64,000 bases of DNA from Sulfolobales archaeon HS-7 (GCA_019704295.1 AP024596.1:1728001-1792000), one strand, 5' to 3'; counted from the first letter of the stretch, positions 4,155 to 43,744 are shown. Program-made: numbers and translations. The notes: generated by a model from the letters alone, not told the origin.

Positions 4155-4445
4155 GTAAACACTCCCATTGTTGACAGAAGGGGATTCGTCCCTCTCAGCT
4201 ACCCCTTTACCTAAAGGACTCTACACTCTATGAGGGCCGTACCCCTGAAGTTAACGTTAGTATCCTAGATAGGACCGCTCATATGGGCAGAGGCATTCCA
4301 CATGGATCTTAGCTTAGACCTCACGAAATAGCTTTCTCCGTGGATGACTACCGTTTATATTCTGGGCGCTAAGCGATAGTCAAACTTATAAAAAGGGACT
4401 ATTCGCCCTTGCAGGTCTTCCTCCCCTTTGAATTTCCAAATGAAG
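4155..4445 (-). mobile_element. Non-autonomous IS200/IS605-derived mini-element (degenerate, omega-RNA-like)
   Basis: Minus strand: TTTAT (4450-4446), left end CTTCATTTGGAAATTCAAAGGGG, TATA-like TTTTTATAAG, scaffold GGGGTACGGCCCT, right end GTGTTTAC. It aligns by eye with 43464-43744 and 8241-8527. Confidence 0.7.
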
Positions 4446-4901
4446 ATAAAGGGACTAAGATACACCGAATCACTTAGTTACGCCGAGATCCACTAGATCA
4501 AACCTGTTCGATAAGCTGAACATATATAACAAGGAACCCATGAGGAGCGTAATAATAGTAAACCAAATCTTTCCTTTCGTCTACTGAACCAGAAGATGTT
4601 CGTTCCCTAATTCAGGGAGATTCAGGTATACATCGCGAATTGTAATTATTGCATGTAAAGATTAAATAAAGGAAATTGTTAAGTGCGAATCTCTACCTAG
4701 TCCATACGATTGGATTTAATTAAATTCATTCTATGTCTCTAAATAAACCGAATTCGCAATTAACACATGAACAGTCAGTAATCCATGCGAATGATCATCC
4801 ACTACGATTAAAGTGAGAAAAATCACTTTTTTTAAAAATATGTAGAGAATATTAGCCCCAGGATGTTTTCGCAGTCTTAAGCTCGTTGACGAATAGCTAA
4901 T

Positions 4902-5414
4902 TTACGCCGTCCTTCTTACGGAGCTAACTATTATTTTCCTTGCCTCTTCCACATCACCCCATCCGGATATTTTAACCCATTTGTTAGGTTCAAGTTCCTT
5001 ATAATGTTCGAAGAAGTGTACTATCTTATTCTTTACATGTTCATTTATATCCTTAACGTCCTTTATGGATGAAAAGCTAGGATCTATTTTATCCTTGGGA
5101 ACGGCTATTATCTTCTCATCGTTTCCCTCTTCATCTTGCATTTTCATAACGCCTACAGGCCTGGCCTCCACAACTGTTCCTGGTAAAAACGGAACGTTAG
5201 CTATTATCAATACATCTAAGGGATCTCCGTCGTCAGCCATAGTTCCCGGTATAAAACCATAGTTAAACGGATAAACCATCGACGTATAGAGAACCCTATC
5301 TACTTTAATTACTCCTTGTTCTTCATCGTATTCATACTTTACATTCGAACCCATCGGAATTTCAACAAGCACATTCACAAGTTCTGGGGTTTTATTCCCT
5401 GGACTAAGTTTCAT
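4902..5414 (-). CDS. ppa: Inorganic pyrophosphatase
   Basis: [11 protein letters not shown] and the DGDPLD signature. Confidence 0.97.
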
Positions 5415-5423
5415 AGAGATGCA

Positions 5424-5960
5424 TTACAAGTTTAAGTTATAAGTTTTTAGGAGTTCCAACACAGAATCCCTTGCAAAAGAATAATCTCTGTCAAGATAAT
5501 CTTTAAGTTGTTTCATATATGTTTCCTTTATTTCGGAGGTATCAGGGGCAATCTTCTCGTATCTTATAGCTTGGATAATTGAAGAAATAATATCACCTAA
5601 TTTCGCTAGTTTCGCCTCATAGGTACTCCTCTCTTTTAATTCCTTAGCATATTCCTTTGGTACTCCTAGCCCAAGCAGCGCCTCAAATTCGACGTTGTCT
5701 TTCTCTTGAATTCTTTCTGATGCCCACTTCGGAATATCCCCTAGAAGAACCTCCCCCACATCATGGAGTAAGGCCAAAGTCGACGCCCTATCACAATTTA
5801 CATTGATATCCTTAAGTGAGATGCATATATTTAGAGTTAATATAGCGGCCTCAAAACTATGTTCGGCTACTGTCTCCCCTAACGCAGGGGGAACTCCCCT
5901 TTGCATCCATCCGGTTCGAATTAGATTCTTAGTACCCGCTGTAATTCTCTCAATATTCAA
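5424..5960 (-). CDS. HD-domain hydrolase (YfbR/5'-deoxynucleotidase-like)
   Basis: RTGW...ETVAEHS...ALLHD motifs. Confidence 0.85.
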   Translation of the reverse strand: MNIERITAGTKNLIRTGWMQRGVPPALGETVAEHSFEAAILTLNICISLKDINVNCDRASTLALLHDVGEVLLGDIPKWASERIQEKDNVEFEALLGLGVPKEYAKELKERSTYEAKLAKLGDIISSIIQAIRYEKIAPDTSEIKETYMKQLKDYLDRDYSFARDSVLELLKTYNLNL

Positions 5961-7288
5961 ATCATTTCCACCACGCTGTTCAATGTTTTTAAAAATTTAT
6001 CCACATCCCTTTCCCAAAATCTAATCATAGCTTCTTTACCTTTCATACCCCTATCAAATATAACGTTACTTAAGCTCTGCGAATTGGCGACTATTTTCCC
6101 TATCCACGCCATAGTCCCCCCCTCCGGACCAGAGGGCTCTTCCTCCCTGTTAATTTCAAGGGGAACGTAACCCAATTTCCTAAACGCTTCGAGAATTCCT
6201 TCATCAAACCTTATGTTCATCAAAATCACAGCGTTAATCCCATTTCCTATTAAGGAATGAAGTAGTCTTGCAGTATGGGTAGTCCTGCAGAATACAGGTG
6301 GATTATTTACTTTTACCTGATCGTCTCCATACTTGGTTATTCTCCCTTTAAACGTAGCAATATCACAAAGGTCTATTACGTATCTCGGGTCGGATGCGTG
6401 AGCAATATTCGATTGAACCTCAGGTATTAGTTTATAAAAACCTCGCTTATTCGCAACGAAGTTATCAATTTCTAACATATTAACATAAGTTTTCCAACGG
6501 GCTCTCTCTCTATGTAGGTGAGCTAAAGGCTGGAATACGCTGTTGCCTAGGCCAGGAGTTTTACTAAATTCTATTCCTATCTCCATTAACTCTATTGACT
6601 TTCTTAACCCGTCCTTCACACTGTAACCTTGAGCTAGAAAGCCTGCCAGATATGACGCTAAAGCAGAACCTGTTCCGTGTACGGTGTTCCTAATGCTCCT
6701 TTTATGGCGGAACTCCACTACCTCTTCCTCCGTAAACAGTATATCTACGACCTCATTTAGTGGAAGATGTCCTCCTTTTATTATAATATTTCTTACGTTG
6801 AAGACATCGTAAATTTTCCTTGCCGCGACCTTCATTGTATCTACATCAGTTATCCTTACTCCTGTTAATTTTTCTGCCTCAGGAACGTTTGGAGTAATGG
6901 CTAGCGAGTCCTTTACTATATACTTCGTATATTCATCGAAATCCTTTATCAGGGTCGTCCCATCCTTAGCAATTATTACAGGGTCTACTACGAATTTCTT
7001 ATCAGTGAGGAGTTGTCTCACGATCCTTGCTTGCCCACCCGTGTAAATCATTCCAGTTTTCGCATAGGGAAAGTCGAAATCCTCCTTAAGCACCTCTATT
7101 TGCTTGGCTAAAACCTCTTCGGGAATAGGGAATATTCCCCTAATCCCTAAGGAATTTTGGAAAGTTATTGCAGTCTGTACTCCTATCCCATGTACACCTA
7201 TGGATTCCAGCGTTTTAAGGTCAGACTCTACTCCTGCTCCATTACCTGTGTCAAACCCCCCTATTGTTAATACTACGTCTTTATCCAT
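5957..7288 (-). CDS. thiDN: Bifunctional HMP/HMP-P kinase - thiamine-phosphate synthase ThiN
   Basis: N-terminal ThiD ([26 protein letters not shown]) and C-terminal ThiN ([20 protein letters not shown]). Confidence 0.9.
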
Positions 7289-7973
7289 TCTTCTTTACCC
7301 TCGTGTTTCCCGCAACTACCCAAAACTCTCCGTCATCCCTACGCTCTAATTTCCAAATTCCAGTAGTATGCTTTACTAATTCCAAAGCCTCCTCAACTGC
7401 TCTTATTGCGTCCTTTCTCCCCCTCCCCAAGGCCATTATCAGAATAACGTCATCGCCAGGATGGATATCTCCAATTACATGAACGATCTTCAGTTTTAAT
7501 AGGTCGCGGTATTTACTTTCTATTTCGCGCCTTATCTCCTCCAATCTTTTTCTAGTGTAGTCCTCATAGACCTCATATGATAACGAGGAAACCTTATGCC
7601 CTTCTACAATACCCTTCACGAAACCGAGGTAAATAACTAACGAACCTGCCTCCTCGGGAGCTTCCTTTCTAAATTGGGCAATTTCGTTTAAGAGATCCAA
7701 TCGTTTTCCAATGAGCAACTCGCCCCCCGAAGGAGGGGGGAGGAATGCAACCTCTGCTCCGTCAGTTAAATTATTATCTATTTTTCCATTGACAAGGATC
7801 GAGATTCTTATCGAACCTATGCCATACTTTATTATATTGTAGAACTTTTCTCCATATTCCTTAGATAACTCTTTCACCAAACAATCTACATCGTTACATG
7901 ACGTCTCGATATCCTCTTCCGCTCTTCCTGTAAGATCTCTTAGAAGTGCGAAATATCTTATATGTAGTTTCAT
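7281..7973 (-). CDS. moaDE: Fused MoaD (ubiquitin-like) - MoaE molybdopterin synthase
   Basis: Beta-grasp N-terminus (IRYFALLRD ... FLPPPSGG) followed by MoaE (LSYEVY, IWKLE). Confidence 0.9.
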
Positions 7974-8240
7974 AAATCTAAACTAGGTTATGTAAATATT
8001 ATTTTTACACGTTTTGAGGCGGGCTAAGATGTTCTGATCACTGCTACCCGACGACGCTAGTAATTCCTTAATTAAATGTTACGCCAACATTCACTATAGT
8101 TTTACGCGAGAGTAAATGCGCAAAAAAGCTAACTCATCAGCATAACTCCTAATGGTACGTAGTGACAAAAGCTTGTATTCCATCGCTTAGTAAGATTATT
8201 ACTAAACGTTATGACAGTACACCAGACATTCTTAGATTAT

Positions 8241-8527
8241 GTGAACTAGCCCCACCGACAGACTTCCTGATTCACAACTACGTCTTGCTGGTCGTAGAGG
8301 GCCCCACAGGCTCTGAGGGTCGTACCGACCACGAGGTGAGCTTAACACCGATGTATTACACCACTGATGGGAGCAGAGGCGAACGGCGTAGACGCTTTCT
8401 TATGCGTCTCGGTAACGCTTACTCCTTCGCGAATATCACTGAGCTGAGTGCGTCCCTTTTCACATCTAACATTAATTGTAAAGGAGACTATGCATCCCTA
8501 ATCGGTCTACCCATTACCACTATTAAG
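8241..8527 (-). mobile_element. Non-autonomous IS200/IS605-derived mini-element (omega-RNA-like)
   Basis: Minus strand: TTTAT (8532-8528), left end CTTAAT..., scaffold GGTACGACCCTCAGAGCCTGTGGGGCCCCTCTAC..GCAAG..TGAATCAGGAAG, right end TAGTTCAC at 8241. It is homologous to the 3' end of the tnpB element at 54723-54830. Confidence 0.8.
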
Positions 8528-8596
8528 ATAAAATTGTAATAAGGTGGCTATATATTATCATAATCTAAATCCACGTTATAAAATTGGGCAAGCTTC

Positions 8597-9307
8597 CTAC
8601 TCATCGTTATCTTTTCCGATAACTGCTGTGACTAAGGCGTCTTCTTGAGGAACTCCTATGAATTTCGGGGTTCCATTAACAGCCACAGTAGGGACTGACA
8701 TAACCTGATATTTATCTGCTATATCTGGATTTTCGTAGGCCTCCACTACTTCTGAGTGAATTAACGGCTTATTGTTTCGGTAAGCCTCGTAAGCGACCAT
8801 ATGCGCAGTGAGGGCAGCGTATGGACAGTACGGGCACGAGGGGGTCACTATCGTTTCTATTTTAGCCTCCCTATCAAGGGTTTTCAGTGTCTCAACAGTC
8901 TCAGGACTCAGACCGCTATCTCTTTGTGACAATCTTATAATTGTTTCAATAAGTGCTCTAATCTCCTCTCCTATAGGTGCTCCAGTCCATCTTAAGTAAC
9001 CGTCGAGAAAAGCGACTGTAGGAACTCTTTCAACATTAAATTTCTTGAAGACCTCCTGTGACGCGGGATCCTCTTTATCCACTACCTTAACCCTCAACAG
9101 GTATCCTTGATCTATCTTTGGGGAACTATCCTTTACGTACTCCATAAGTTTAACTGTCAAATCACAGTATCTACACTCCCTGTTCTTACTGTCCGTAAAA
9201 ACGTAAACCTCTACCTGTTCCTTCATATCCTTGAGCGCTTCAACGAGAGCGTTTTTCATTTCCTCGTTGAATAACTCTGAATATTCCTCCTCTGACATAA
9301 TTAGCAC
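8597..9307 (-). CDS. Protein disulfide oxidoreductase (PDO, two thioredoxin folds)
   Basis: CRYC and CPYC motifs. The true start is probably the ATG near 9298. Confidence 0.9.
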   Translation of the reverse strand: MLIMSEEEYSELFNEEMKNALVEALKDMKEQVEVYVFTDSKNRECRYCDLTVKLMEYVKDSSPKIDQGYLLRVKVVDKEDPASQEVFKKFNVERVPTVAFLDGYLRWTGAPIGEEIRALIETIIRLSQRDSGLSPETVETLKTLDREAKIETIVTPSCPYCPYAALTAHMVAYEAYRNNKPLIHSEVVEAYENPDIADKYQVMSVPTVAVNGTPKFIGVPQEDALVTAVIGKDNDE

Positions 9308-9352
9308 CTAATTTTTCTCTACTTTTCTATATTTAAGTTTTGTTACTAATAA

Positions 9353-10969
9353 CTATAAATTCCTCCTTACTCCGACTTTACCTTTCAGCTCGCTTTCATT
9401 TATTACAACGTATATTGTCTCCTCTCCCACTTCCTCTCCTTTAATCCCGAATGTGGATGGCAAGTAAACTGTTTTGTCTTCGGATAGGGAGAGAGCTGCT
9501 GATGGACTCTTTACCTTGATACTCGGCGAGTCAACGAATTTTGAAATTCCTACTCCATCAATATAACCAACGCTTTCTCCAGAACCTACTCTTACAATTT
9601 TTCTTTTAATTTCAAAGTCAAATTCCTTAGGTTCACATATTTCCGAACTTATTATTAATACGTCTCCCACCCCTCTTTTCATTGCCTCGCATGCCACACT
9701 ACTTCCGGCGTAAAGTATTCTGGATATACCTGAGAAACTTAAAGAAGGTTCTTCCTCTCCTATCACGGTATAACCTGAAAAGGTGTTAATTAGCTTCACT
9801 GAAACCGGTTCGTTTACATTAACGCTTTCTCCACGCCTTAAATGAACGTAGCCATCAGAGAGAGTAAATGCGCCTATCATATAACTATCAAAAGGGGGTA
9901 AGTAAGCATAAACTTGACTTTTGCCTCGTAGGAGAATCGCTGGGAGAAACGCGTCTCTTCTTCTATCTCCTTTAATTTCATTTAAACTGTTTGCAATGAT
10001 CTCCCTTCTCTCAGTGAAGTCTAAAATCGATTTAACTAACTCCTCGAATACAATTGTAGCTGAAACAGGATTCCCAGGCAATCCAACTACTACCTTATCG
10101 TTAATAAGAGAGGCTATTGTTGGTTTCCCTGGTTTAATATCTATCCCGTAGAAAATTATTGTCCCTTTTTCAATTAATATTTTATTGACGTAATCCCTCT
10201 CACCTGCACTCGTACCTCCTACAGTTATGATTAGGTCAGAATCGTTTAACGCGGTCAGAATTTCTTTCTCCACTTTTTCCCTAACATCGGTTACGTAGAC
10301 CCTTCTAATTACAGTAGATCCCATTTCCTTAAAAGCTGCCTGCAGGAAATAGCCGTTAGAATCGAAAATTTTAGGTGCAAAATAACTGTTCACCCCTGGT
10401 TCAATTATCTCATTTCCAGTAATAATTATACTAACAGACATTGGTTTGTACACTCGAACCTTGGAAATTCCCTGAGAAGCTAGAAGAGACACCTTATAAG
10501 CCGAGATCCTTTCTCCCTTGCCTAATATCATTGTACTTTTTGATATGTCGCTCCCTATTATAGCGACGTTATCCCATGGATTTACTTTCCTCCCTACCAA
10601 CAAATGGTTTTCTCTCCTAGATGTGTCTTCAACTTTAACTACTGCATTTGCTCCATGTGGTAGGATGGATCCGGTATCGACCTCCACCGCCTGCCTTCCC
10701 TCTACCTTTACTTCTTTCGCTTCACCAATCTCTACTTTGTCGATTACCGCGAAGTCGCCAGGACTCAATTCCGACTTAATTGCGTATCCATCTACCGTAG
10801 ACCTAGAGAATGGCGGTAAGTTAATATTGGCATATACCTCCTCCGCAGATATGAAATTAAGTGAATCTAATAGGTTTACTTCAACAACTTGCCGTCTAAT
10901 TAACTTGGATAATCTCTCTCTAGCCTCATCAAGGGTTATAAGTTCCTCGTCGTTAAGAGTAATCCTCAT
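9353..10969 (-). CDS. moeA: Molybdopterin molybdenumtransferase MoeA with C-terminal extension
   Basis: PPFSRSTVDGYA, TGNE, GGTSAG.RD, IKPGKP and LPGNPVS motifs. Confidence 0.92.
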   Translation of the reverse strand: MRITLNDEELITLDEARERLSKLIRRQVVEVNLLDSLNFISAEEVYANINLPPFSRSTVDGYAIKSELSPGDFAVIDKVEIGEAKEVKVEGRQAVEVDTGSILPHGANAVVKVEDTSRRENHLLVGRKVNPWDNVAIIGSDISKSTMILGKGERISAYKVSLLASQGISKVRVYKPMSVSIIITGNEIIEPGVNSYFAPKIFDSNGYFLQAAFKEMGSTVIRRVYVTDVREKVEKEILTALNDSDLIITVGGTSAGERDYVNKILIEKGTIIFYGIDIKPGKPTIASLINDKVVVGLPGNPVSATIVFEELVKSILDFTERREIIANSLNEIKGDRRRDAFLPAILLRGKSQVYAYLPPFDSYMIGAFTLSDGYVHLRRGESVNVNEPVSVKLINTFSGYTVIGEEEPSLSFSGISRILYAGSSVACEAMKRGVGDVLIISSEICEPKEFDFEIKRKIVRVGSGESVGYIDGVGISKFVDSPSIKVKSPSAALSLSEDKTVYLPSTFGIKGEEVGEETIYVVINESELKGKVGVRRNL

Positions 10970-11000
10970 AAAAAAATGAAAGAATCTAAAACTATTAACT

Positions 11001-11333
11001 TTACGCGTTAAGCGCTATTAAGGATGCCTTTAACAGTTCCCCTAAAATAACCATGATCGAGTTTATTACCTTATCCTCGTCTATTTGCTCTCCCACCGAT
11101 TCCGCCTTTACTTCGCTAACTATTTCATTTGCTATATCCGAAACCGTCCTTTTTCCATCACACATATTCCACACGTAGAATGCCACAGGAGCTACCTCAT
11201 AAGTTCTTTCCTCATCCAACTTGATATAAAAACCCTCCTCGCTTTCGTCTTGTCCAACTGCTTCTCCTCTCTTCAGAGGTGTAACGTTTCTCATTTCTTC
11301 AAAGTTTAACGAATTATTCTCATTACTGGTCAT
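11001..11333 (-). CDS. PqqD-family (RRE-like) small protein
   Basis: YVWNMCDGKRTVSDI ... L.ELLKASLI winged-helix PqqD pattern. Confidence 0.75.
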   Translation of the reverse strand: MTSNENNSLNFEEMRNVTPLKRGEAVGQDESEEGFYIKLDEERTYEVAPVAFYVWNMCDGKRTVSDIANEIVSEVKAESVGEQIDEDKVINSIMVILGELLKASLIALNA

Positions 11334-11755
11334 TCATCTTCGCCTTCATTATGCCTTCTGTATCCTCTCCCCCTTCCCCTAAAGTTCCTCCTCTGTGGTC
11401 TATAACCTTCTGGGGCCTCAGGAGAATTTTGAGGAATCTCCGATTCTGACGGGAATGCATCGCCGTCTGCCTCACTTATTTTACTTGTATTTCCTGCGTT
11501 AAGATTAACTTGATTCCTAAAAACGGATGTCCAGGCATTCTCGATAACTATGACTTTTCCTGCCTGAATAGAACCAGCTAATTTACCCCAAAGGGTGAGC
11601 TTCGTCCTACCAGTTTCGTCACCTACAGTAGCCTCGCTTATAGTTCTAACTCCATTCCTAGTCGTAATTTCCCTTTGCTCACCCGCTTCAAGAACTCGAA
11701 CCTTCACGTTTATATTGCTCATATTTGGTTTGAGATTACCTACTTTTTCTTCCAT
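11330..11755 (-). CDS. ssb: Crenarchaeal single-stranded DNA-binding protein
   Basis: MEEKVGNLKPNM, VGDETGR.KLTLWG OB fold, and an R/G-rich plus acidic tail. Confidence 0.95.
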   Translation of the reverse strand: MEEKVGNLKPNMSNINVKVRVLEAGEQREITTRNGVRTISEATVGDETGRTKLTLWGKLAGSIQAGKVIVIENAWTSVFRNQVNLNAGNTSKISEADGDAFPSESEIPQNSPEAPEGYRPQRRNFRGRGRGYRRHNEGEDE

Positions 11756-12303
11756 ACCTAATCTATCTCACTTAAGTTATGCAAGATGAGCTTAGTTGTT
11801 TACGTATAAAAATTTTTCTCTCTGAAAAAGTTTCAGAATATATTCTATAAAATGTTTACTTGTGATCTGCAAAACATGTCACTCAACCCTCAAGTGTTAC
11901 CTTACATAAGCATCTACGAATAACAACTTTACTAGATCTCATGTTAAATATATCAATAAATTAGTTTAATTTAATTTCTAAATAACATTCTTTATAACTT
12001 TTTACCTTATCTAGTTATTCCCGTTGATTGCATATTATACACTGTTGGATAAGTTTCAATGCACATTAGACTTTGTTATGAGGTCATAGAGGCATCGCCT
12101 AGTATCCTCAGGAGGAACTAGAAGTTTCTAAACTGCTAAAAGCGCCTTCTTAAGTTAGAGATATTTGTTATTTTCCACCAACGAAAAGATTGAAAACAAA
12201 GCCTTATATCAGCATTTTGAAGTAGTTTTTGCGTTAGTGTAGCGAAATTCATGAAAGTCCTGTCGCCCCCTACTTATGGAAAAGTTATCTGAAAGCTCGC
12301 TAG

Positions 12304-12768
12304 CTATTTAGAGGTTATTTTGTTTTTATTTCTCTCTTCTCCTGATATCTTACTTATTTCCTCATATAATTCGGGGTACGTATTCCTGATTTTCTTCAGG
12401 GACCACGGTTTTAATCTCTTCGACTTTACCCCCCTTATTACCGATCTAATCCACGTATCATAAATCCGATCCCCTCCTTTCACATAAAATTCGCGTAGAA
12501 TACGAAGACATTCATCATCACTCAACTGCTTAATATTACAGAGATATCTGCTCCCGACGTAAAGTATAAATCTCTTTCTGCCGTCCTTAAGCCCGGTCTT
12601 TAGAACAGTGTCAATCCATCCATATGTTATTTTATTCACGATAGGGATAGGAAAGTTTCCGTAAACATCAAATAGGAGCCCTTTATCGTCGTAGACTCTT
12701 GATATTTGACCATCAAACTCGACATAACCTGCCCGTGTCCCATCAGGATAGTAAAGAGGATACTTCAC
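12304..12768 (-). CDS. priX: DNA primase noncatalytic subunit PriX
   Basis: WIDTVLKTGLKDGRKRFILYVGSRYL.N.K and WIRSVIRGVK.K.LKPWSL match Sulfolobus PriX. Confidence 0.85.
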   Translation of the reverse strand: MKYPLYYPDGTRAGYVEFDGQISRVYDDKGLLFDVYGNFPIPIVNKITYGWIDTVLKTGLKDGRKRFILYVGSRYLCNIKQLSDDECLRILREFYVKGGDRIYDTWIRSVIRGVKSKRLKPWSLKKIRNTYPELYEEISKISGEERNKNKITSK

Positions 12769-12771
12769 AGA

Positions 12772-13446: not shown

Positions 13447-14502
13447 GACGATAAACTAATGATACCTGTTAATAAATTATATTCTAAAGGAAGTTAGGAT
13501 AACTCAATTAACCTGGAATTACTAAGAGGTCAATCATCATGGCGTTGCAAACAACACTTTATGATTTGCTATCCTGTCCGAAAGAATCCCTCAAGCCCTA
13601 AGGGGATACCGCATTGATCTCCATGTCCAGGGTATCCCAAGGGGGATGTTAGTTGAAGCTAAGATATACCTGGCAATCTTGAATTGGTATTTTGGTGACT
13701 TCGTAAGATGTTGTATACTTCCTCTCTAAGGTAACTATGTGAATAGTGATTTAGAACTTCACCTAGATAAACGTCGTAATCTTTCACGTTATTTACCTTG
13801 GGCAACTAGGTTTTCTTCATGACTAAATCATTGTAAGGACTCGCTATTCTTATTCCTAGAGCTACACAATAACGTCAAATTTACAATAAGTATTATTTAC
13901 TTTATTAACTAAATTTGAATGTATATGAATAATTATCCTCGCACCGTATAATCAGGACGATAGTATAGGAGAATTACGAGAAATGAAACTCCCTTACTGA
14001 CTTCCTAAGTGCCCTAAAAATATCCGGCACTGTCCTCTGCTAACTTTTAATTCATAACGCTGAAATCCTCTTTTCAGCCTAGATCCTTGAGAGATACATC
14101 CTCACTTGCCAGTATGTTCAATAAAGTTACTTTATATTACCCTCTACTCGTAATTAAATGGATTTAATTCTAGACTCACGTGTTTTATAACTTTTTGGTT
14201 TATTTAATTATTCATATTAATTACATATTAGACACTGTACATGTTTTCTCCGTAAAAGTGAGTCTCATTAACAGTAGTGCAGAAACTCGTTAGGAGGGCC
14301 TTCGATTCCCATAGTCACCAGGCCTAACAACCCTCCAACCAACATAGAATCATTTCTTTTTTTATAAGTTATACTAACAATATCTTACTAGTGTGAGTTT
14401 TCTCAGTGAAACTGTACTATGATATTGCAATGATTATAACCCTACTTTATGCATATTAAGCAAATAAAGAACGAATATCGTATATGTATCATCAAAAAAG
14501 GC

Positions 14503-34097: not shown

Positions 34098-34586
34098 TTC
34101 TTTATTTTAAAGAACGCGACATTTTTAATTTTACCGTATAATTTGAGAACTTAGGCGTCTATTCGAACTCTTACATAACATTGCGTCTACCCTTAGGTGA
34201 TGAGATAGGGCATACTCAACTACTGGAGAGACATTACGAACACTCGTTCCCAGCATTTTTCTGATTTTCACAGGGCCTTACAGTACTAAATAAAAAGGCT
34301 ATATATTCTAATTATGTCGTTCTAATCACTATTAACGCTAGTTACGTAAAATTTAGTAAAGTGATGTTTTCCTAAAACTGAACTCACGTAAGTGAAGGGA
34401 ACTTCTGCATCAAATATTTAATCTTGTTACTTCATAAAAATTTATATATATAATATCATGATAATAATATTTAATAGGAGATTTTTAACTTGCAAATAAG
34501 GTAACATAGTATCGTATTAAACGCATGAGAAAGAGGATGTCGATAAAACATAATAATTAGCTGTCGTTCATTTATTAGTATATCGT

Positions 34587-35219: not shown

Positions 35220-35751
35220 GGAAGAAATTAAAAGCAGGAAGATGATTGCGATTAAACCAGAGCTTCACAACAAATTAAAAAAAATTAGCGAAAGTTCTGG
35301 AATACCGCTTTTCACCATAACTAACAATATTCTAGAAGAGGCCTTACGGTTATATGATATGAAGATTCCAGCGTCGGAATTGTATAACATTATCCAAGCT
35401 ATTATAATGTTTAGGGATATCGGTTTCATACCTTTTCCCTATTCCCATGTAACCAAAAGTCGAACTGAGGATTGGGAGAAATTAGGGGAAACTGTGGGTA
35501 TCTATATGACCAATATTGGAAAAGGGAGTAAAGAAGACGTAATTAATTTTGCTAAGATGTACTTATTTCTGATAGGAGTTAACCCCCTTCATTTCTCAAA
35601 TGGAAAGAAAGGAGTATTTGCATCAGGTACGGCAATAACTCAAGACTTTATAGAAAAAATAGGAAATTTCTTTAATGGTATCATAAGGAAAACGGGGACT
35701 GGGTTAACGGTAAAAGCGACATATCAGTACATTTCAATAGAAGAAGTTTGA
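35212..35751 (+). CDS. Ribbon-helix-helix protein with possible V4R-like C-terminal domain
   Basis: RKMIAIKPELHNKLKKISESSGIPLFTITNNILEEAL is RHH-like; WEKLGETVG...FFNGII follows. Confidence 0.65.
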   Translation: MNEEEIKSRKMIAIKPELHNKLKKISESSGIPLFTITNNILEEALRLYDMKIPASELYNIIQAIIMFRDIGFIPFPYSHVTKSRTEDWEKLGETVGIYMTNIGKGSKEDVINFAKMYLFLIGVNPLHFSNGKKGVFASGTAITQDFIEKIGNFFNGIIRKTGTGLTVKATYQYISIEEV

Positions 35752-36650
35752 TTTTTGCAGGAGTTGATCCTGGAACTGACACGTGGGCATTTGCATCAGT
35801 TAACGAAATAGGAAATCTAATTGATTACTTTGAAATACCAGCTGTCCTGGTGGAAAAAGATTACGTGAGTCTCTTTAACAGGCTGTTAAGGAATAAACCT
35901 AAGCTAATTGCACTGCCTTCGGGTCACGGGATGCCTTTCCTAACTTGTAGGGAAATTGGGAATCGTGAGATCTTCTTTATGACATTAAAGGATCCGTTTG
36001 AGACTGGTCCTTTAAGGAACTTCTTAATTTACGCGAGGAGTTTCTGTAACGTAATCACGATTCCTGGCGTAAAGGAATTGCTCTCTATCAGCGAGAGTAA
36101 GAAAAGGAACTTAATAGATATGGGAACAGCAGACAAGGTTGCGTCGGCCTTTTTTTACATAACTAGATTTCCAGGATTCGTTCTCGTCGAAATGGGAAGA
36201 CATTTCTCAGCAATCATTGTTGTAGTGGATAGAAAAATCGTAAATGGTGTGGGAGGAAGTGTTTTACCAGGTCTGAGATCTAATGGTGCAATAGATGGGG
36301 AAATAGCTTACCTACTATCTAAATACTCAAAAATCTCGAAGGAGTCGATCTATGAGGGGGGGAATCTAGAAAGATCAATTGAGGTGATAGAGTCTATCGC
36401 ATCCTACTACTCCAGGAAACATAATGTTCCCATCATTATCTCTGGACCAGCGAAAGACGTATTTCCTTACGGAATCAAATTCCAACTCCCTTATAAAGAA
36501 GCTGCAGTCGGTGCAGCGCTAATAGCAAACGCTTTTGGAGGCGGTTATTACAGGAAATATATGGAGTCAGTTATTTCTGCCGGGAATCCGCTATCTTACA
36601 TAGACATTAAGGGATGGGAGAAGATAGTTTCCTTGATAGAGACGCTTTAA
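35748..36650 (+). CDS. DUF1464-family ASKHA-fold (kinase-like) protein
   Basis: GVDPGT, PSGHG, IDMGTADKV, VEMG, IDGEIAY and EAAVGAA. Confidence 0.8.
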   Translation: MIFAGVDPGTDTWAFASVNEIGNLIDYFEIPAVLVEKDYVSLFNRLLRNKPKLIALPSGHGMPFLTCREIGNREIFFMTLKDPFETGPLRNFLIYARSFCNVITIPGVKELLSISESKKRNLIDMGTADKVASAFFYITRFPGFVLVEMGRHFSAIIVVVDRKIVNGVGGSVLPGLRSNGAIDGEIAYLLSKYSKISKESIYEGGNLERSIEVIESIASYYSRKHNVPIIISGPAKDVFPYGIKFQLPYKEAAVGAALIANAFGGGYYRKYMESVISAGNPLSYIDIKGWEKIVSLIETL

Positions 36651-37522
36651 TGGATAAAAGAGGAAATTACTACATAGTAATTGGTAATGCGCATCCTAGA
36701 GGTTACGTTATTGCTTACCTAAAGTACGTAAAAGGGAATGGCTTATGGAGAGGCTATCAACGTGTACTTCCGCAATACGGAATTAAGAACGTTTTACAAC
36801 TAAGTCAGGAGTTCTCCTTTGAACCTTGCATGGACGTTTCTGTCCCAATTATTAGAACATCTGAAATATGGCTTCATTTAAGACCACAAGATGCCCTTAC
36901 CCGGATTATTAGACATCCTTCTGACAACTTAGAGTTCGTTGCCGTTGAGATGATTAGTCGTTTAGGAACTAATTCGGCGGGAATAGCTGGTTCCCTGATG
37001 CTGGGAATACATCATGAGGATTCCGATATAGACGTGATATATTATGGATGTAAGCGTTCCTTGGATGTAATGCATAGCTTTGAGGGATTTGAAACCGATA
37101 AAGACTGGATCGTTGAAGTAAGTCAGAATTATGGATTAAAGCCCATAAAGGACCTCTACTCTATAAAAAGGCGAGGAATCTTCAAGGGAAAAAAATACTC
37201 TATTAACTTCGTAAATGATAAACCTGAGAAGTTCTGCAAAGAATCATGTAATAAGGTGGGTAGGCAAAAGTTAGTTGCTTACGTAGAGCCTGAATCATGT
37301 GAAGCACTTTTTTATCCAATTTCGATGAATTTATTCGATACTAACGTAATTAGTGGCCCCTCGGTTAAACCAGATAAGGTGATGTCATATGAAGGAGTGA
37401 TTTCCAATCTACTATTTGTCGGGGGACGTTTTAAAATGGAAGGAATGTTAATGAAATGCGATACAGGATTCAAGTTAATTCTCGGGGATAGGGATGTCGG
37501 TCTTAAAATTGACAAACTGTAG
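36614..37522 (+). CDS. Pol-beta-type nucleotidyltransferase (archaeal COG1665-like)
   Basis: FLDRD..., AYLKY and GIAGSLMLG.HHEDSDIDV.YYG. Confidence 0.8.
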   Translation: MGEDSFLDRDALMDKRGNYYIVIGNAHPRGYVIAYLKYVKGNGLWRGYQRVLPQYGIKNVLQLSQEFSFEPCMDVSVPIIRTSEIWLHLRPQDALTRIIRHPSDNLEFVAVEMISRLGTNSAGIAGSLMLGIHHEDSDIDVIYYGCKRSLDVMHSFEGFETDKDWIVEVSQNYGLKPIKDLYSIKRRGIFKGKKYSINFVNDKPEKFCKESCNKVGRQKLVAYVEPESCEALFYPISMNLFDTNVISGPSVKPDKVMSYEGVISNLLFVGGRFKMEGMLMKCDTGFKLILGDRDVGLKIDKL

Positions 37523-38384
37523 GGACATAGCAAGAAGAATAACATATGCATCAATAAAGGAGATTCTAACAAATAAGCCAGGTAACGCGTCTCCTAAAAA
37601 GGATATAAGGAGTGTTAAGTTCTCCGAGATATTAAGTAACGCTATGGAACTTGAACCTTACTATTATCAACTTTGCATGAAGGGAGTCTCTCAAGAAAAA
37701 GGGATATACGACCATCTATATTCCGCAATAGTTGAATCTAAGAAAAAAGGGATATCTTTTCACTTACTGGGTACGGCTTTATTAAATATGCCCATTGCGT
37801 ATGTTGCTGGCACTTCTCCAAATCTAGCGGATTTACGTAGTGGATTAGGACGAGTAATTAGGGAGTTAGATCAAACGGAGTTTGACAATTTCAGGAAATC
37901 CCTGCAAATCGTTAGCCCCAGCTATTTGGGTAGGTTAGATATGTCAGATTACAGAAACTTCTCAGGCAGTATGTACGATGTTCTGGTAGTATCTTCTGAA
38001 TCTGACAGAAATTGCTCTAACATGGTTAACGGTTACGTTATATCCTTCGAAATATATGAGTGGTTCAAAAGTAATGGCGACTCTGAGGAGACTGTTACTT
38101 TAGAATTCCTCAATCTCCTCTCCAATTATCCAGACACTCTCCTCTACAGGAAACACGGAGGAAGGGTATCACTGCAAGTTTCTGAACTAGTTAGGTCAAT
38201 GCTCAACAGTACGGCAAACATTATGGGAATATCGGAATTCCTAGACAGGTATCTTACGGAAAGAGGTTTCAACCCTGGTTCGACGGCTGACTTAATAGCA
38301 TCAGGTCTAGCACTATATTATTTGGATAAGCTATATAGTAATAGAAATAATGAGAGTTTTACTTATAACGAAAACCCTATGTAA
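37494..38384 (+). CDS. CitG-family (triphosphoribosyl-dephospho-CoA synthase-like) protein
   Basis: E....KPGN, LGT.LL..P, PDTLLYRKHG and NPGSTADL. Confidence 0.85.
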   Translation: MSVLKLTNCRDIARRITYASIKEILTNKPGNASPKKDIRSVKFSEILSNAMELEPYYYQLCMKGVSQEKGIYDHLYSAIVESKKKGISFHLLGTALLNMPIAYVAGTSPNLADLRSGLGRVIRELDQTEFDNFRKSLQIVSPSYLGRLDMSDYRNFSGSMYDVLVVSSESDRNCSNMVNGYVISFEIYEWFKSNGDSEETVTLEFLNLLSNYPDTLLYRKHGGRVSLQVSELVRSMLNSTANIMGISEFLDRYLTERGFNPGSTADLIASGLALYYLDKLYSNRNNESFTYNENPM

Positions 38385-38829
38385 TGAGTTGATGGTTCAG
38401 AAGGTTAATCGCTTTAACGTTGACGCCGTAATAGGAGTTGGAGATGTTACTTGTCCCGAAAGGTTTAAGGGATTTAAGGGTCTACATGGGGAGCTTGATG
38501 GGGTACACGCGTATAAGTATATTATGAGGAATAGGTTTACTTCCTCGTTAGCGTTATCTTCAGATTTTACGACGGAGTATGTGGTAAGCCATATGCCGCC
38601 ATTGGGCTCCACAACTGCAGTGGTAAACGGGGTTTATATTGGTTCGATTGAGGTTACGGAGTTAGTGAAAAGACATAAACCTAAGATCTTATTTCACGGA
38701 CACGTAGAGGACCAGGGCAAGGGGCTAATTAATGGCGTCCTCGTAGTTTCCATCGGTTCGTTAGATAGGGGTCGTGCAATACTATTTGATGAAGAAAGGC
38801 TTTTTTTCGAATTCCTAGAAATTAAGTAA
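38350..38829 (+). CDS. Short metallophosphoesterase-like protein
   Basis: GVGD, GELD, SHMPP and FHGHVE. Confidence 0.75.
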
Positions 38830-39435
38830 ATTCCTTCTTTTCATTTCTTCTAGGACGTCTTTAACGGGTATTGGCGGTTCGACTCCGTAATTGTCCTTGA
38901 AAGCGTGCTCTATATCAGTTTTTACACCGTTATCAAGGAGTTTCCTTATCAGATTTATCTCATCTTCCCAATAGTTCCAAGGATACATAAACCATGCCCA
39001 ATCTGTAATGGTCGCGGCATAGTAGTCCGGTTTAATCCTCGCAGTACTTTCGATATACTGCATAGTAGATGTTCTTATCGCACCAGGATTGAAATTATCG
39101 CTTACAAATTTCTTCGCTATCTCGAGACTATCCCCAGTGTCACATATATCATCGACTATTAATACATTCCCTCCCTTTAAGTCAAGTTTATACGGGAACT
39201 TAATTTTAGCTTCGACGTCCTTGTTAGCGGTCTGCACCCAATGTTCAACTTTTATTGAAATTACGTCAAGGACGCCTAACGCGTCGGCAACTAACCTGGC
39301 CGGTACCAAACCTCCGCGTGCAATTGCAATGATTACGTCTACCTTATATTCGTCCCTTTTGATCTTATCGCTTATGCCAGAACTCCAGTTTACTATATCG
39401 TCCCAGTCGACCACCCTAACGGGTATCTTGACCAA
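38815..39435 (-). CDS. Purine phosphoribosyltransferase (HGXPRT-like)
   Basis: [18 protein letters not shown] and W.MYPW. Confidence 0.9.
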
Positions 39436-39522
39436 AAACTATCCCCCTCAAAATTAATCGTAGTGTTAATTAGCTTTTCTAGAGATAGTTAATACTTGTT
39501 TTGACAAAAATGTTCTTATTAA

Positions 39523-39804
39523 TTAAGACACGTAGAGTAATCCAGCCTTTTTCATAGATTCTTCGATCATAATCTTGACTATGTCACTTTTGAAACCTGC
39601 ACATGAGATCATTATCACCTTTCCTTTCCTCTCATCACAAACTATTTTACACATCAAGTTGTAGTTTGTAGACTTCAAGATCAAATCATGAACCATTCCA
39701 AAAGTCTGTTCTTGCTTGAGAAATATCTTAATCCCCTGAACCTCGATCAGTAGTCTGCCGTCAGTCGACCGCTTAAATATGTCGCAATTGAGGGGATCGA
39801 TCAT
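39523..39804 (-). CDS. Hypothetical protein
   Basis: Coupled ORF in a 3-gene unit. Confidence 0.65.
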   Translation of the reverse strand: MIDPLNCDIFKRSTDGRLLIEVQGIKIFLKQEQTFGMVHDLILKSTNYNLMCKIVCDERKGKVIMISCAGFKSDIVKIMIEESMKKAGLLYVS

Positions 39805-40139
39805 TTTATCACTATTGTCAGATCTTTGTCACATAACAGTCTCCTGTTTTGATAAAATGGAACCACTTTATCCTGAATTTCCTTTGCTATGCACTGCAGA
39901 TAGGGGACATATTCTTCAGGAACATCTATGACCTCATAGAAGTAAAGTTGACCCTCTATGAAGGGAGGCACCCTATATCCTCCTAGACTAACCTTACCGT
40001 CCAAGTAATCGACAAAGAGAACCCTATTCTGATTTCTAATCAGCAGGTTTGCGTTCTTGATAAAAGACGCAGAGCCCTTCACTTCCGATTTAAAAATTTT
40101 TTTTCCCTTAAGCGTAATTTTTAGTAGCAAAGGGATCAC
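39801..40139 (-). CDS. Hypothetical protein
   Basis: Coupled ORF (GTGA/ATGA overlaps). Confidence 0.65.
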   Translation of the reverse strand: MIPLLLKITLKGKKIFKSEVKGSASFIKNANLLIRNQNRVLFVDYLDGKVSLGGYRVPPFIEGQLYFYEVIDVPEEYVPYLQCIAKEIQDKVVPFYQNRRLLCDKDLTIVIK

Positions 40140-40531
40140 TCAAACATGAGCTTTTGAAGTTTAGCGTAGTAATAAAGTAATATTATTTGAATAACGCACA
40201 AAGCCATTATGGAGCCTATAAACAATAGAAGGTAAGTTGGAGGAGAAAACGCTATTATGTAACCAGAGTATATAACTATTGCTAAAATCGATTTAAGTAT
40301 TCCGTAGTACTCAGCGTATTTTAAGCTCATGGTTATCATGGCAAGGATTAACACGTTAAATAAGGCAGATATTAGAGGAACACCTATCAAGACCTGTCTC
40401 TCTACTATATTGGTTATTGGAAGTCCCACGTAAGTCAGTACGGAATATAGCGCTGTTGATAATATGATGTTAATCGAATAAACTATTGATGACGATACTG
40501 TAAGTACCCTATTCATTTCTCTAGTGTCCAA
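40136..40531 (-). CDS. Hypothetical 4-TM membrane protein
   Basis: Four hydrophobic segments. Confidence 0.7.
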   Translation of the reverse strand: MDTREMNRVLTVSSSIVYSINIILSTALYSVLTYVGLPITNIVERQVLIGVPLISALFNVLILAMITMSLKYAEYYGILKSILAIVIYSGYIIAFSPPTYLLLFIGSIMALCVIQIILLYYYAKLQKLMFE

Positions 40532-40782
40532 TCACTCTCGCCAAGAAGATAATATATGTTTTCAAGAATAAAAAGTTATCTTTAGAAATGATACGAAGTA
40601 AATAATTAGCTTTTATCGGCCAAAATATATTCTGAAGATGATATAGATTTTGTTAAACTGGCATTCTTACTAGTTGAGTTATTAACCGAGTAGGTTGCTA
40701 AGGTTTGAAGGAAATACTTTTCGGTATTATAGTAAAACGTTAATAAGGACAGAGTTTTTAATATAAGCTAGAGGGGATAATT

Positions 40783-41250
40783 TTGTCACAGCCTGGAACT
40801 TCGAAGTCGAAGGAACTTAAAATCACATCGAAACAGGTAGTCTCAAAGAACGCGATTAATGAAGACCCTAAAAAAGCAAAACTTCTGTACATAATAAAGG
40901 TTGTAGGACCGATATCTGAAAGGGGACTTTTTTCCCTAATAAAAGATCTTCAAGAAAAAAATGTTAATTTAGGATATGAGTTTACCGAAGTAGCTGGAAA
41001 GCTTACTAGTATCACATTAAGAGAGGACATAACACAGCTACTCTATTTAGGCTACGTGGAAAACGACGTCAATGACAAGAGGTTGAAAATAACTGGTGAC
41101 GGGGATGAGGCATTAGCTAGTGTAAACATAGAGAACGAGTTCGCTTCGGCATTAAGTAACGCAATAACTGAATTAAAAACTAAAATCCGTGCAATTGATC
41201 TGGAAGAAACGGAAAAAATAAAGAGAGAGAGGAGGCAAAGACGTCGTTAG
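40783..41250 (+). CDS. Hypothetical winged-helix protein
   Basis: LREDI..L.YLGYVE ... KITGDG wing pattern and a basic tail. Confidence 0.65.
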   Translation: MSQPGTSKSKELKITSKQVVSKNAINEDPKKAKLLYIIKVVGPISERGLFSLIKDLQEKNVNLGYEFTEVAGKLTSITLREDITQLLYLGYVENDVNDKRLKITGDGDEALASVNIENEFASALSNAITELKTKIRAIDLEETEKIKRERRQRRR

Positions 41251-41670
41251 TCAAATCATAGGGAAAGTGTTTCTCCTTCCAGTACTCTGACCCTGATTTT
41301 GCTCTTCAGGTTGCTTTATCCATATTAATGGATCGAGTTGATCTGAATCCTTGAGTTTAGTTATGATGTCCTTAAACTGACTTGTATGTCTTATGTCAAG
41401 TTCTAGCAACTGTAAGAGAATAGACCATGAAGTTTTCTGTACGTCTATTAGCATCTCCTTCGGCATATGTTTTATTACTAAGGGGTCTTGCAACCATTGA
41501 TCAAAGGCCTTCAAGGTCCTCATCATGTGTTGAAAGGCATATCTCGAGTCGAGGATAAGATCTAATCGATCACCGCCTTCCTCCTTATCTCCTCTCTGTT
41601 TTATAAGCTCAAGTAGATTCTTCTGAACCTTTATCCACTCGTCCAGGTTAGATATAAATGAATTCTCCAA
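41251..41670 (-). CDS. DUF2153-family protein
   Basis: DRLDLI...[20 protein letters not shown] and LELDIRHTS. Confidence 0.8.
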
Positions 41671-41848
41671 ACCCAGTACACCTCACGTACAGCATACGAT
41701 TAGCTAGTTAAAAAGATATATACAATCTAGAAGTTTCCTTGAATAACGCCATTATAGACGTTGAGTAAAGTCGTTCTAGCCAGGGGGTTCTCGTTAGGGG
41801 TACTAGCATAGTCATGAGTTTTATTACTGGAATATCAACTTTGACTAT

Positions 41849-42517
41849 ATGGGAAGAAAACCTAGCTTAGCTAGTGGTAAGCATGTGCAAGTGGCATTAG
41901 ATTTCATAGCGTTAGAAAAAGCTTTGGTTGTAGCTATTAATTCAATTAAAGCTGGCGTTACTATAGTTGAGGCAGGAACGCCGTTAGTTAAGGCAGAGGG
42001 AATTAAAGGACTTAAGGTATTAAGGGCCATTTCACCTGATATTTTATTACTTGCCGATACCAAGACAGCCGATGCAGGAGACGTTGAGGCCGAAATAGCG
42101 AGCCAGGGAGGAGCAAATATTATGACTGTCTTAGGAGCTATGGACGACTCAACAATCAGCTCCGCCGTCAAAAGGGCTAACGAGTCGGGAATTTTAGTTC
42201 AGGTCGACATGATAAACGTCAAAGATCCCGTAAAGCGTGCTAGGGAAGTAAGTAAGTTAGGTGTAGATATAATAGGGTTTCACGTAGGTCTTGACGTCCA
42301 AAAGACTAGAAATATTTCTGTGTCGTCTTTAAGAGAGGAAATTGTTGAGGTCTCATCCCTGGAGATCCCGATATCTGTTGCTGGAGGATTAAACCCTGAG
42401 AGAATAACGGAATTGGCGGACCTACCTATTTCCATATTCGTAGTAGGTTCCTATATTACGTCCAGTTCGAACCCATATGACACGGCTTTAAGGTGTGTTA
42501 AGGCCTTACATCCCTAG
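41849..42517 (+). CDS. 3-hexulose-6-phosphate synthase (HUMPS/OMPDC family)
   Basis: QVALD, EAGTPLVKAEG, ADTKTADAG, HVGLD.Q and VAGG. Confidence 0.88.
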   Translation: MGRKPSLASGKHVQVALDFIALEKALVVAINSIKAGVTIVEAGTPLVKAEGIKGLKVLRAISPDILLLADTKTADAGDVEAEIASQGGANIMTVLGAMDDSTISSAVKRANESGILVQVDMINVKDPVKRAREVSKLGVDIIGFHVGLDVQKTRNISVSSLREEIVEVSSLEIPISVAGGLNPERITELADLPISIFVVGSYITSSSNPYDTALRCVKALHP

Positions 42518-42930
42518 GGATATTCAACTAGAGCGTATTTACCCTGACCCTCATATACTTTTACTGAAATCCGGAATTTCTGACCTAGTTTATTATGTAG
42601 TGACTTAGCCATTTCCATAGCTATGAATTCTGCCGTAGCAAAGCTGTCCTTCACTACCCTTATGTCTGTCCTGAAAGGACCATGTAAGGTTATCTTATCT
42701 AAATCCTTTTCTGGAATAAGCAATTTATGATCCCATCCTCTCAACTCCTCACATACTACTGTCTGAAGTGTGTTGAAGTCGAGAACAAATCCTGTTTTTT
42801 CATCAACCTCTCCTTCAACTTCTACGGAGACAAGATAAGTGTGCCCGTGTATCTGATCGTCTGATGGTGAGGAAAGAGTATAATGAGCTGCGTCGAAAGC
42901 CTTTCCTTCAATTCCGATTTTAACTTTCAT
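42514..42930 (-). CDS. 6-pyruvoyl-tetrahydropterin synthase/QueD-family (COG0720) protein, Cys-less variant
   Basis: FDAAH...HGHTY, GFVLDF, DH, TAE and VYEG. Confidence 0.88.
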   Translation of the reverse strand: MKVKIGIEGKAFDAAHYTLSSPSDDQIHGHTYLVSVEVEGEVDEKTGFVLDFNTLQTVVCEELRGWDHKLLIPEKDLDKITLHGPFRTDIRVVKDSFATAEFIAMEMAKSLHNKLGQKFRISVKVYEGQGKYALVEYP

Positions 42931-43409
42931 TCGAGTAACCTTCTAATGTTATTCTCAAATAGATTCCACAACGACTCGCTTAAGTAATTTATCTGATCAC
43001 ATATGTCCCTTAGGTCCTTATCGTTATCGATCGCTTTCTGAATCTCATTTAGGACTGTCATTAACGACTTAAAGTCCCCATCCATTATTTTCCTGTCGTT
43101 AAAGTAAAGAGCGTCACTTACATTAAAATCACCACCCTTCTCTAATTTCCAATAAATAGAATAGACTAAATTGTCTATATTGAGGTTATATTCGCTGAAA
43201 AGTTCGCCAACTCTATCTGAGAGAGTTTTAACATTCTGTTCTATCAGAAATATCATGCTATCTATAATCTCTAGCTGTTCCTTAACCCTCTCATTATTTA
43301 GAATTTCCCTAAATTCGGTAGTTGTAAGGCATTCTACTCCGCATGGGACAACAACATCAATAAGCTTAACTTTAGTACTGGGTTTTTTGCCAAGGTATTC
43401 TGATGACAT
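42927..43409 (-). CDS. Hypothetical protein
   Basis: 160-aa ORF coupled to the PTPS gene. Confidence 0.7.
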   Translation of the reverse strand: MSSEYLGKKPSTKVKLIDVVVPCGVECLTTTEFREILNNERVKEQLEIIDSMIFLIEQNVKTLSDRVGELFSEYNLNIDNLVYSIYWKLEKGGDFNVSDALYFNDRKIMDGDFKSLMTVLNEIQKAIDNDKDLRDICDQINYLSESLWNLFENNIRRLLE

Positions 43410-43463
43410 AATACGCGATCTCCTTCCAAAAATTTATCATTTTGCTAAGAGGTCTTCCTTACA

Positions 43464-43744
43464 GTGAACTCGTTCCTTGTTGGTAGGAGGGGTTTCCTGC
43501 CTCATACCTCCACCTTGCCAGGAGAGCTCCGCAGGTACTAAGGGTCGTATCCCCGAGGTTAACGTCAATGTTCCGTATAAGACTATAATTGAAGCAGACG
43601 TGTATTGCATCCACCCTCGCTTAGGCGTCTTAGTGACACTCACTTCGTCGTGAGTGCGATTAACGTGTTGGCTGCATGCCAACATTTAAATTTATAAAAG
43701 GGGGTTCTCCTCGGTCTCCTGCCCCCTTTGAATTACCAATGAGG
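43464..43744 (-). mobile_element. Non-autonomous IS200/IS605-derived mini-element (omega-RNA-like)
   Basis: Minus strand: left end CCTCATTGGTAATTCAAAGGGGG, TATA CTTTTATAAA, scaffold ATACGACCCTTAGTACCTGCGGAGCTC..GGCAAGGT..TGAGGCAGGAAACCCC, right end GAGTTCAC at 43464. Confidence 0.8.

Follow-up and report, generated by a model that had tools for sequence, protein, structure and literature searches.

The PATEs of Geobacillus stearothermophilus, described by Meers et al. (bioRxiv 10.1101/2023.03.14.532601), are gene-less minimal derivatives of IS200/IS605 elements that 'often encode omega-RNAs', on which TnpB from other elements would act in trans (bioRxiv 10.1101/2023.03.14.532601). In Sulfolobus islandicus, SMN1 is a 320-bp non-autonomous element mobilised by the IS200/IS605 element ISC1733 (PMC3718332). 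Strain REY15A of the same species has an IS605 system of TnpB and right-end element RNA (SisTnpB1, TnpB7; PMC11043419, bioRxiv 10.1101/2023.03.06.531077), in which the right end is TTCAC, the transposon-adjacent motif (TAM) is TTTAA and the guide follows directly; its TnpB works with a guide RNA supplied from a separate plasmid, and a scaffold of ~150 nt is needed (PMC11043419). In this study we analysed a window of 64,000 nucleotides from Sulfolobales archaeon HS-7 (GCA_019704295.1, AP024596.1:1728001-1792000), in which a preliminary description had noticed three copies of a mini-element and read them as stand-alone omega-RNA loci programming a TnpB encoded elsewhere. It is suggested here that these loci are quite probably non-autonomous IS200/IS605 copies of the PATE or miniature inverted-repeat transposable element (MITE) type, which owe their presence to selfish retention and whose guides, in the window, are most likely weak or dead.

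The three copies all lie on the minus strand and align colinearly over their whole length, occupying, with the 5-nt target site included, positions 4155-4450, 8241-8532 and 43464-43749 of the window. A profile made from them found ~80 further matches in the 2.15-Mb genome, down to E = 1e-52, and a refined profile gave 94, with full length in 25. The family is also present in four other Sulfolobaceae genomes. A covariance model (R1) built without copies 1 and 3 nevertheless recovers both (E = 8.7e-8 and 1.5e-11, respectively), and it also finds copy 2 (E = 6e-18) and the right end of a tnpB pseudogene in the same window (54723-54835, E = 2e-19). Alignment, profile and covariance-model searches thus confirm, well beyond chance, that the three minus-strand copies belong to one family. 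Judged from their sequences the copies are old and diverged, the pairwise identity in an alignment of 25 copies having a median of 61% and ranging from 45% to ~100%.

The edges of this 25-copy alignment are sharp. On the left, unrelated DNA is followed by TTTAT and then by CTTCATTGG..., the boundary falling between TTTAT and CTTCAT..., and on the right the alignment ends in ...GAGTTCAC, beyond which the DNA is again unrelated; the two flanks of each copy have no relation to one another. TTTAT precedes 28 of the 48 left ends, most of the others being one base off, and the sequence upstream of it is unrelated from copy to copy. We treat TTTAT, by analogy, as a presumed target site and not as the first bases of the element. 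The preliminary coordinates prove exact at their starts, which are the right-end termini, but their ends stop just inside TTTAT; likewise the TTTAT-like site that had been assigned to every copy is TTTAT in copies 1 and 2 but GTGAT in copy 3. Within a size class of 270-340 bp the mini-elements have a common order, consisting of TTTAT, a left end of ~50-95 nt, an AT-rich box, an internal module of ~75-80 nt and the last ~100-115 nt of a full element, which terminates in GTTCAC, and matches to left-end and right-end profiles bracket them at ~0.3 kb. In place of terminal inverted repeats the ends carry subterminal hairpins, and there is no target-site duplication. The hairpin of the left end is AAAGGGGG...CCCCCTTT, with an inner CCCCTT..AAGGGG, and that of the right end is CCCCTTCT..AGAAGGGG; changes on both sides are seen in 5 of 7 pairs of the former and 7 of 8 pairs of the latter. 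Rfam gave no match for the mini-elements or for the tnpB ends.

Both ends of the mini-elements are homologous to those of resident tnpB elements. The tnpB elements that share them lie at 1019722-1021060 and 1939706-1941040 of the genome and at 54723-56141 of the window, with 1.3-1.7 kb between left-end and right-end profile matches in the intact elements as well as in the window pseudogene. In the parent element TTTAT is followed by a left end with a nested hairpin, the AT-rich box GTATAAGGTTAAATAT, ~29 nt and the ATG of a leaderless tnpB; the box preceding the tnpB start is the same as that in the mini-element left end. Three intact tnpB open reading frames (ORFs), of 424, 419 and 414 aa, are present in the genome, as the preliminary description had proposed to check, and they carry the Pfam OrfB_IS605 and Cas12f1-like TNB domains. 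All three TnpBs keep the RuvC D-E-D residues, and the only one compared with known structures aligns end to end with those of ISDra2 TnpB (E = 5e-27). Twelve further matches to the TnpB zinc ribbon are fragments or pseudogenes, that of the window included. The genome has a single tnpA (Y1_Tnp, E = 1e-40; 1660394-1660759), in which the HUH and Tyr motifs, HFH and SYF, are intact. It lies upstream of the 414-aa tnpB in an element that is flanked by TTTAA, whose left end resembles that of the mini-elements and whose right end has two hairpins, as does a minority subfamily of mini-elements (subfamily 2). The shared ends, the lack of a maintained ORF and the presence of intact TnpBs and a TnpA elsewhere lead us to regard the mini-elements as non-autonomous IS200/IS605 derivatives.

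The window itself holds a full-length tnpB element of the same family (54723..56146, minus strand), with TTTAT at 56142-56146 and its right end at 54723. Its tnpB is broken by stops and frameshifts, and blastx pieces in several frames match the intact TnpBs, while the left end and the scaffold are still recognisable; the omega-RNA scaffold and right end (54723..54835) score 85.6 bits with R1 and have P1-P3 largely intact. A tRNA gene (54401-54475) lies ~250 bp past the right end of this element. The 3' block of the three window copies aligns to the 3' end of the pseudogene, also on the minus strand. This block had been taken as matching a non-coding tnpB end, a point that needs correction: in intact elements the tnpB frame ends at a TGA inside the terminal GGGTGAGTTCAC, and the scaffold block of a full element is therefore coding.

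The helices of the omega-RNA scaffold were defined from long-form copies and tnpB-linked ends, and R1 was built from them. They comprise a hairpin, P1 (GGGUCG/CGACCC), a long-range helix, P2 (GCUCCGCC/GGUGGAGC), and a terminal hairpin, P3, together with the motif GAAGCAGGAAG. The genome scan that had been proposed gave 49 scaffold matches in this genome, and there are 17-32 in each of the four relatives; no match was obtained in five other genomes of the family, one from the genus of the relative G018 and four from other genera. The window copies score 79.8 (copy 2), 54.1 (copy 3) and 38.9 bits (copy 1), as against 85-122 bits for most tnpB-linked copies, and to this extent they do keep a region homologous to the omega-RNA 3' scaffold, as had been claimed. 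In an alignment of 59 distinct sequences the paired cells amount to 90.4%, compared with 36-58% when the partners are slid, and both sides change in 18 of 24 pairs, the observed values being reached in none of 500 shuffles; these scores are inflated because the alignment was fitted to the structure of the model and the sequences are related to one another.

The two kinds of locus behave differently when they are taken apart. In 18 tnpB-linked scaffolds 96.5% of cells are paired, with compensatory changes in 6 of 8 pairs of P2 and 7 of 8 of P3, while in 18 mini-elements of this genome the figure is 78% and covariation is found in P3 only. Scaffold covariation, whose absence had been named as grounds for doubt, is therefore strong in the tnpB-linked copies but eroded in the mini-elements, and what persists in P3 could equally be explained by a subterminal hairpin in the DNA to which TnpA binds. 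Ten of the 18 mini-elements, and all three in the window, lack P2's 5' arm, so that compensated structure has not been kept there. The predicted mini-element RNAs have fold z-scores of -0.2 to -0.9, no better than shuffles, compared with -2.0 and -2.9 for two tnpB-linked scaffolds.

Several other routes to a structure were tried and set aside. With all 23 copies in the alignment RNAalifold predicted no pairs, base-pair probabilities for single sequences and brute-force scans for helices yielded noise when the alignments were made from sequence alone, and a hand-drawn structure of six hairpins on a MAFFT alignment received weak support only. A small ACU/GGU hairpin in the latter gave way to P1 (GGU..ACC), the homologue of GGGUCG/CGACCC in full elements. 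An alternative pairing, GUGGAG/CUCUAC, is invariant in the tnpB-linked copies and for that reason cannot be judged.

Each window copy, all features being on the minus strand, has its own set of defects. Copy 1 is a short form (4155..4445 from left to right end, by the family alignment) with TTTAT as target site and presumptive TAM at 4446..4450. Its left end with the subterminal hairpin (4379..4445), common to the tnpB elements, includes an AT-rich box (4379-4395), a putative promoter inherited from the tnpB promoter region; a diverged module follows (4280..4354), and then an omega-RNA-like 3' scaffold and right end terminating in GTTTAC (4155..4257), in which P2 has lost its 5' arm and the GAAGCAGGAAG motif is mutated. 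Copy 2 is an intermediate form (8241..8527; TTTAT and presumptive TAM at 8528..8532, the boundary again from the family alignment) with a partly deleted left end (8465..8527), a weak AT-rich box (8465-8482), the module at 8366..8439 and a scaffold and right end (GTTCAC) at 8241..8343 that has an intact P1, lacks the P2 5' arm and has a terminal hairpin 7 nt shorter. Copy 3 is another short form (43464..43744), with its boundaries likewise taken from the family alignment. Its target site is the degenerate GTGAT (43745..43749), its left end (43685..43744) holds the AT-rich box TTTTATAAATTTAAA (43685-43701), and its module (43588..43660) is followed by a scaffold and right end (GTTCAC, 43464..43565) that likewise lacks the 5' arm of P2 and has mismatches in P1 and P3. 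The window copies belong to sub-lineages without the P2 5' arm which have suffered further defects, and their guide RNAs are most likely weak or dead; copy 3, at least, is most likely a fossil insertion. With the P2 arm lost from three of three copies, with defects in motif and hairpin and with folds like those of shuffles, the view of them as maintained guide-RNA genes is not supported.

The would-be guides are the 20 nt past GTTCAC or GTTTAC of each copy, and in the window they had been read correctly as such: TAAGCCGAAACTTTACAACT for copy 1 (4135..4154), ATAATCTAAGAATGTCTGGT for copy 2 (8221..8240) and TGTAAGGAAGACCTCTTAGC for copy 3 (43444..43463), all read directly from the flanking sequence on the minus strand. 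When the first 16 nt of each of 25 guides, that of copy 1 included, were compared with the genome, the flank of the respective copy was the sole exact match. The TTCAC standing before such a flank is no TAM for the TnpB of S. islandicus (PMC11043419). No genomic match to the 25 guides with one or two mismatches adjoins TTTAN. Viral contigs contain no match to the 20-mer of copy 3, and to each window guide 10-18 16-mer matches, a chance level, none of which extends or stands after TTTAT or TTTAA. From these searches it follows that the guides are, as a transposon would lead one to expect, neighbouring DNA, of use only against the copy's own empty site. The TAM of that empty site would be TTTAT for copies 1 and 2 and GTGAT for copy 3. 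The S. islandicus TnpB tolerates changes at TAM position -1, position -3 is critical, and a T-to-G change at -3 leaves <20% cleavage (PMC11043419). Given GTGAT in place of TTTAT, copy 3 would probably offer both a poor target in its empty site and a poor cleavage site at its left end.

A mechanism by which such elements move and persist can be proposed. At replication forks the single Y1 transposase, TnpA, would move the mini-elements in single-stranded form. Transcription beginning in the left end would yield an omega-RNA with the adjacent flank as guide, and with it a resident TnpB would, in trans, cut the empty site (TTTAT and flank) left by excision; recombination after the cut would restore the element. 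This would be selfish retention and not a guide array serving the host. Two copies in the genome (706903-707201 and 707985-708283), 299 nt long and nearly identical, are set in different DNA on either side, a sign of transposition. Copies are arranged in blocks of orientation: mostly plus from 2016 kb round to 146 kb, mostly minus at 296-760 kb, plus at 763-1302 kb and minus at 1723-1946 kb, where all 11 copies, the three of the window included, are minus. Such a pattern is established for IS200/IS605 elements, which reportedly integrate as single strands into the lagging-strand template (Ton-Hoang et al. 2010). Movement by TnpA as single-stranded DNA at forks would explain the uniformly minus copies between 1.72 and 1.95 Mb, and since a regional strand bias would account for it, the shared orientation of the window copies needs no functional meaning. 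The switch points between blocks may mark replication origins or termini of a multi-origin chromosome. The family is almost absent from 1.05-1.70 Mb (one match), its elements otherwise lying from 25 kb to 2135 kb. Copies or fragments also cluster within 1.5-2.5 kb at 2124403-2126700 and 706711-708283, and one of the clustered copies adjoins, at its right end, an older and truncated one, a sign of nested insertion or of hot spots for insertion.

The internal module is the part of the mini-elements that their parents do not explain. It is found only in mini-elements and in none of the tnpB elements examined, occurs 43 times in this genome, ~90-125 nt from the start of the left end and ~100-140 nt from the right end where these ends are recognisable, and its first codon position coincides with that of the tnpB ATG. 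In the four other genomes every occurrence of the module, at 82-95% identity, has a scaffold match 15-35 nt downstream, and the module is conserved across four genera. The consensus folds into a 19-bp stem-loop, with 86% of cells paired compared with 37-49% for slid partners, but compensatory change in it does not reach significance (37 of 500 shuffles). Descent of the module from tnpB coding sequence, to which it has short likenesses by eye (at the tnpB start and the CxxCGY codons), was set aside, as there was no statistical match. It is conceivable, although unlikely, that the module takes over the function of the omega-RNA's 5' half, a part that full elements carry inside the tnpB coding sequence; the long forms would then be self-contained, promoter-driven guide-RNA genes exploiting the TnpB and TnpA of others, a long-lived 'parasite of a parasite' and not products of decay.

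Four further explanations have to be set against selfish elements with probably weak or dead guides. That all three window copies are active omega-RNA genes, transcribed from a left-end promoter, served by TnpB in trans and cutting their own empty donor site, which would be functional selfish homing, is in our judgement doubtful and has only a small chance of being correct. The presence of intact TnpBs, the use of guides in trans shown in a related archaeon and the conservation of the module across genera are all consistent with it. So is the short form without the P2 5' arm, which is common to at least 10 copies here and to another genus (L107, L111), which implies that this lineage went on moving once the arm was gone; a local hairpin (GUGG...CYAC or GCCC...GGGC) can form as a substitute. 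Nevertheless the covarying helix P2 cannot form in any window copy, each copy has a further defect (the mutated motif of copy 1, the truncated terminal hairpin of copy 2 and the GTGAT of copy 3), substitutions in the mini-elements of this genome are mostly uncompensated, the folds are no more stable than shuffles, and spread of the short form requires TnpA only and no working guide. A different use of the same RNAs, in a dispersed array of host-useful guides programming TnpB against viruses, plasmids or genes for defence or regulation, is very improbable. Such an array would fit the abundance of copies, whose 3' flanks all differ, the intact TnpBs encoded at other loci and the domestication of bacterial TnpB relatives as RNA-guided regulators (TldR). 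That it has targets of its own is not supported by the searches above, where the 25 guides match only their own flanks, after TTCAC and not a TAM, one- and two-mismatch matches do not adjoin TTTAN, and the viral 16-mers neither extend nor follow TTTAT or TTTAA, at chance level. In addition, such guides are fixed by the insertion site and are not acquired, and all three TnpBs keep their nuclease residues.

The surroundings of the copies and the module bear on the other two. Copy 2 has thioredoxin-like and MoaE/ThiS genes as neighbours, and both it and copy 3 lie in short spacers between co-directional minus-strand genes, the next start codon, that of an ORF, standing 55 nt downstream of copy 3. 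This position, and a left end carrying the AT-rich box that precedes tnpB in full elements, would suit mobile promoter or 5' untranslated region cassettes whose outward left-end promoter acts on the downstream co-directional host gene. We consider this quite improbable, however, as the shared orientation can be explained by the regional strand bias of insertion, the box is not distinguishable from background and there is no sign of selection at these particular sites. Barely credible is the proposition that the mini-element is a tiny protein-coding gene, with an ORF that starts from an ATG replacing that of tnpB and in some relatives continues in frame into the C-terminal tail of TnpB. Copies of two relatives, L089:1384-1620 (Sulfodiicoccus acidiphilus) and L087:1402-1614 (the relative G018), do hold open frames, of 79 and 71 aa, which join a conserved N-terminal peptide, MTV(I/T)DGVSVTETP..., to the frame of the TnpB C-terminal tail; one of them is annotated as a hypothetical protein of Sulfodiicoccus acidiphilus, and they may be an annotation artefact or a real micro-protein. 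Variability in the module also weakly tracks codon position (3 > 1 > 2, at 0.83, 0.73 and 0.58 bits). Against this, stops, frameshifts or the lack of an ATG disrupt the frame in 32 of 33 module copies of this genome, all three of the window included. The longest open frames have anything between 31 and 96 codons, none of them being maintained, and only seven database relatives were found. A coding role was rejected for this genome on these grounds, which bear out the preliminary description of the copies as protein-free.

The interpretation as non-autonomous elements with probably weak or dead guides has points against it as well. The status of TTTAT as target site rests on analogy, and the covariation that underlies the scaffold model is inflated as stated above. 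The test of the AT-rich box was uninformative, since in a genome of 60% A+T the box does not stand out from background. 'Simple deletion derivative' is moreover an incomplete account, because the module does not come from any resident element. Finally, sense-overlapping guide transcripts are seen in S. islandicus for IS605-type elements and not for IS1341-type (tnpB-only) ones (PMC11043419), and the long-form mini-elements resemble the latter.

Three other observations were made in the window. R1 has a weak match on the minus strand at 13529-13626 (13.4 bits, E = 0.18), which could be chance or the remains of a right end in advanced decay. Two intergenic regions 2.2 kb apart (11959-12045 and 14152-14238) contain a direct repeat of 87 nt that is AT-rich, has 72% identity and is unrelated to the mini-elements. 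On the plus strand an open frame of 125 codons (8162-8539) runs antisense across all of copy 2, and given antisense frames of 32 to 96 codons in other copies, this one is in all likelihood spurious.

The family illustrates that an archaeal genome can hold far more orphan mini-transposons bearing omega-RNA sequence (~40) than intact TnpB genes (3), and that these mini-elements form an old lineage that has its own conserved module and is found in several genera of the Sulfolobaceae. In annotation, they explain both a set of 'structured' intergenic repeats and its one-sided strand orientation, and they carry a warning that short ORFs called on them, such as the 79-aa Sulfodiicoccus hypothetical protein, may be artefacts. 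The long and short forms together are a natural deletion series for the parts of the scaffold that a thermophilic TnpB needs in trans. The mini-elements do not reveal a new type of system.

Comparison with the described systems places the family among known kinds of element. Like the PATEs, the mini-elements have no protein gene, share their ends with tnpB and tnpA elements and are presumed to be mobilised by TnpA in trans, and their right end holds an omega-RNA sequence that would need a TnpB made elsewhere. Unlike PATEs, they are found in an archaeal host, their copies are far more diverged (that median of 61%), they contain a ~75-80-nt module which is absent from the parents and conserved across four genera, and many of them have lost part of the scaffold. 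SMN1, in a comparison limited to size and biology, comes from the same order of organisms and shares the size class, the parent transposon family and the dependence on a transposase in trans; as the scaffold model is empty in five other genomes of the family, the mini-elements may differ from SMN1 in family. With the S. islandicus TnpB system they have in common a right end of TTCAC with the guide directly after it, a T-rich 5-nt site or TAM and, in subfamily 2, the two-hairpin right end. The target site differs, being TTTAA in S. islandicus and in the tnpA and tnpB element of this genome but TTTAT in the mini-elements, and whereas the S. islandicus guide RNA overlaps the tnpB gene, only ~100-115 nt are homologous in the mini-elements and the rest is replaced by the module. 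From these comparisons the family is a new, multi-genus archaeal case of a known kind of element, and its unusual points are the conserved module specific to the mini-elements and the widespread partial loss of the scaffold.

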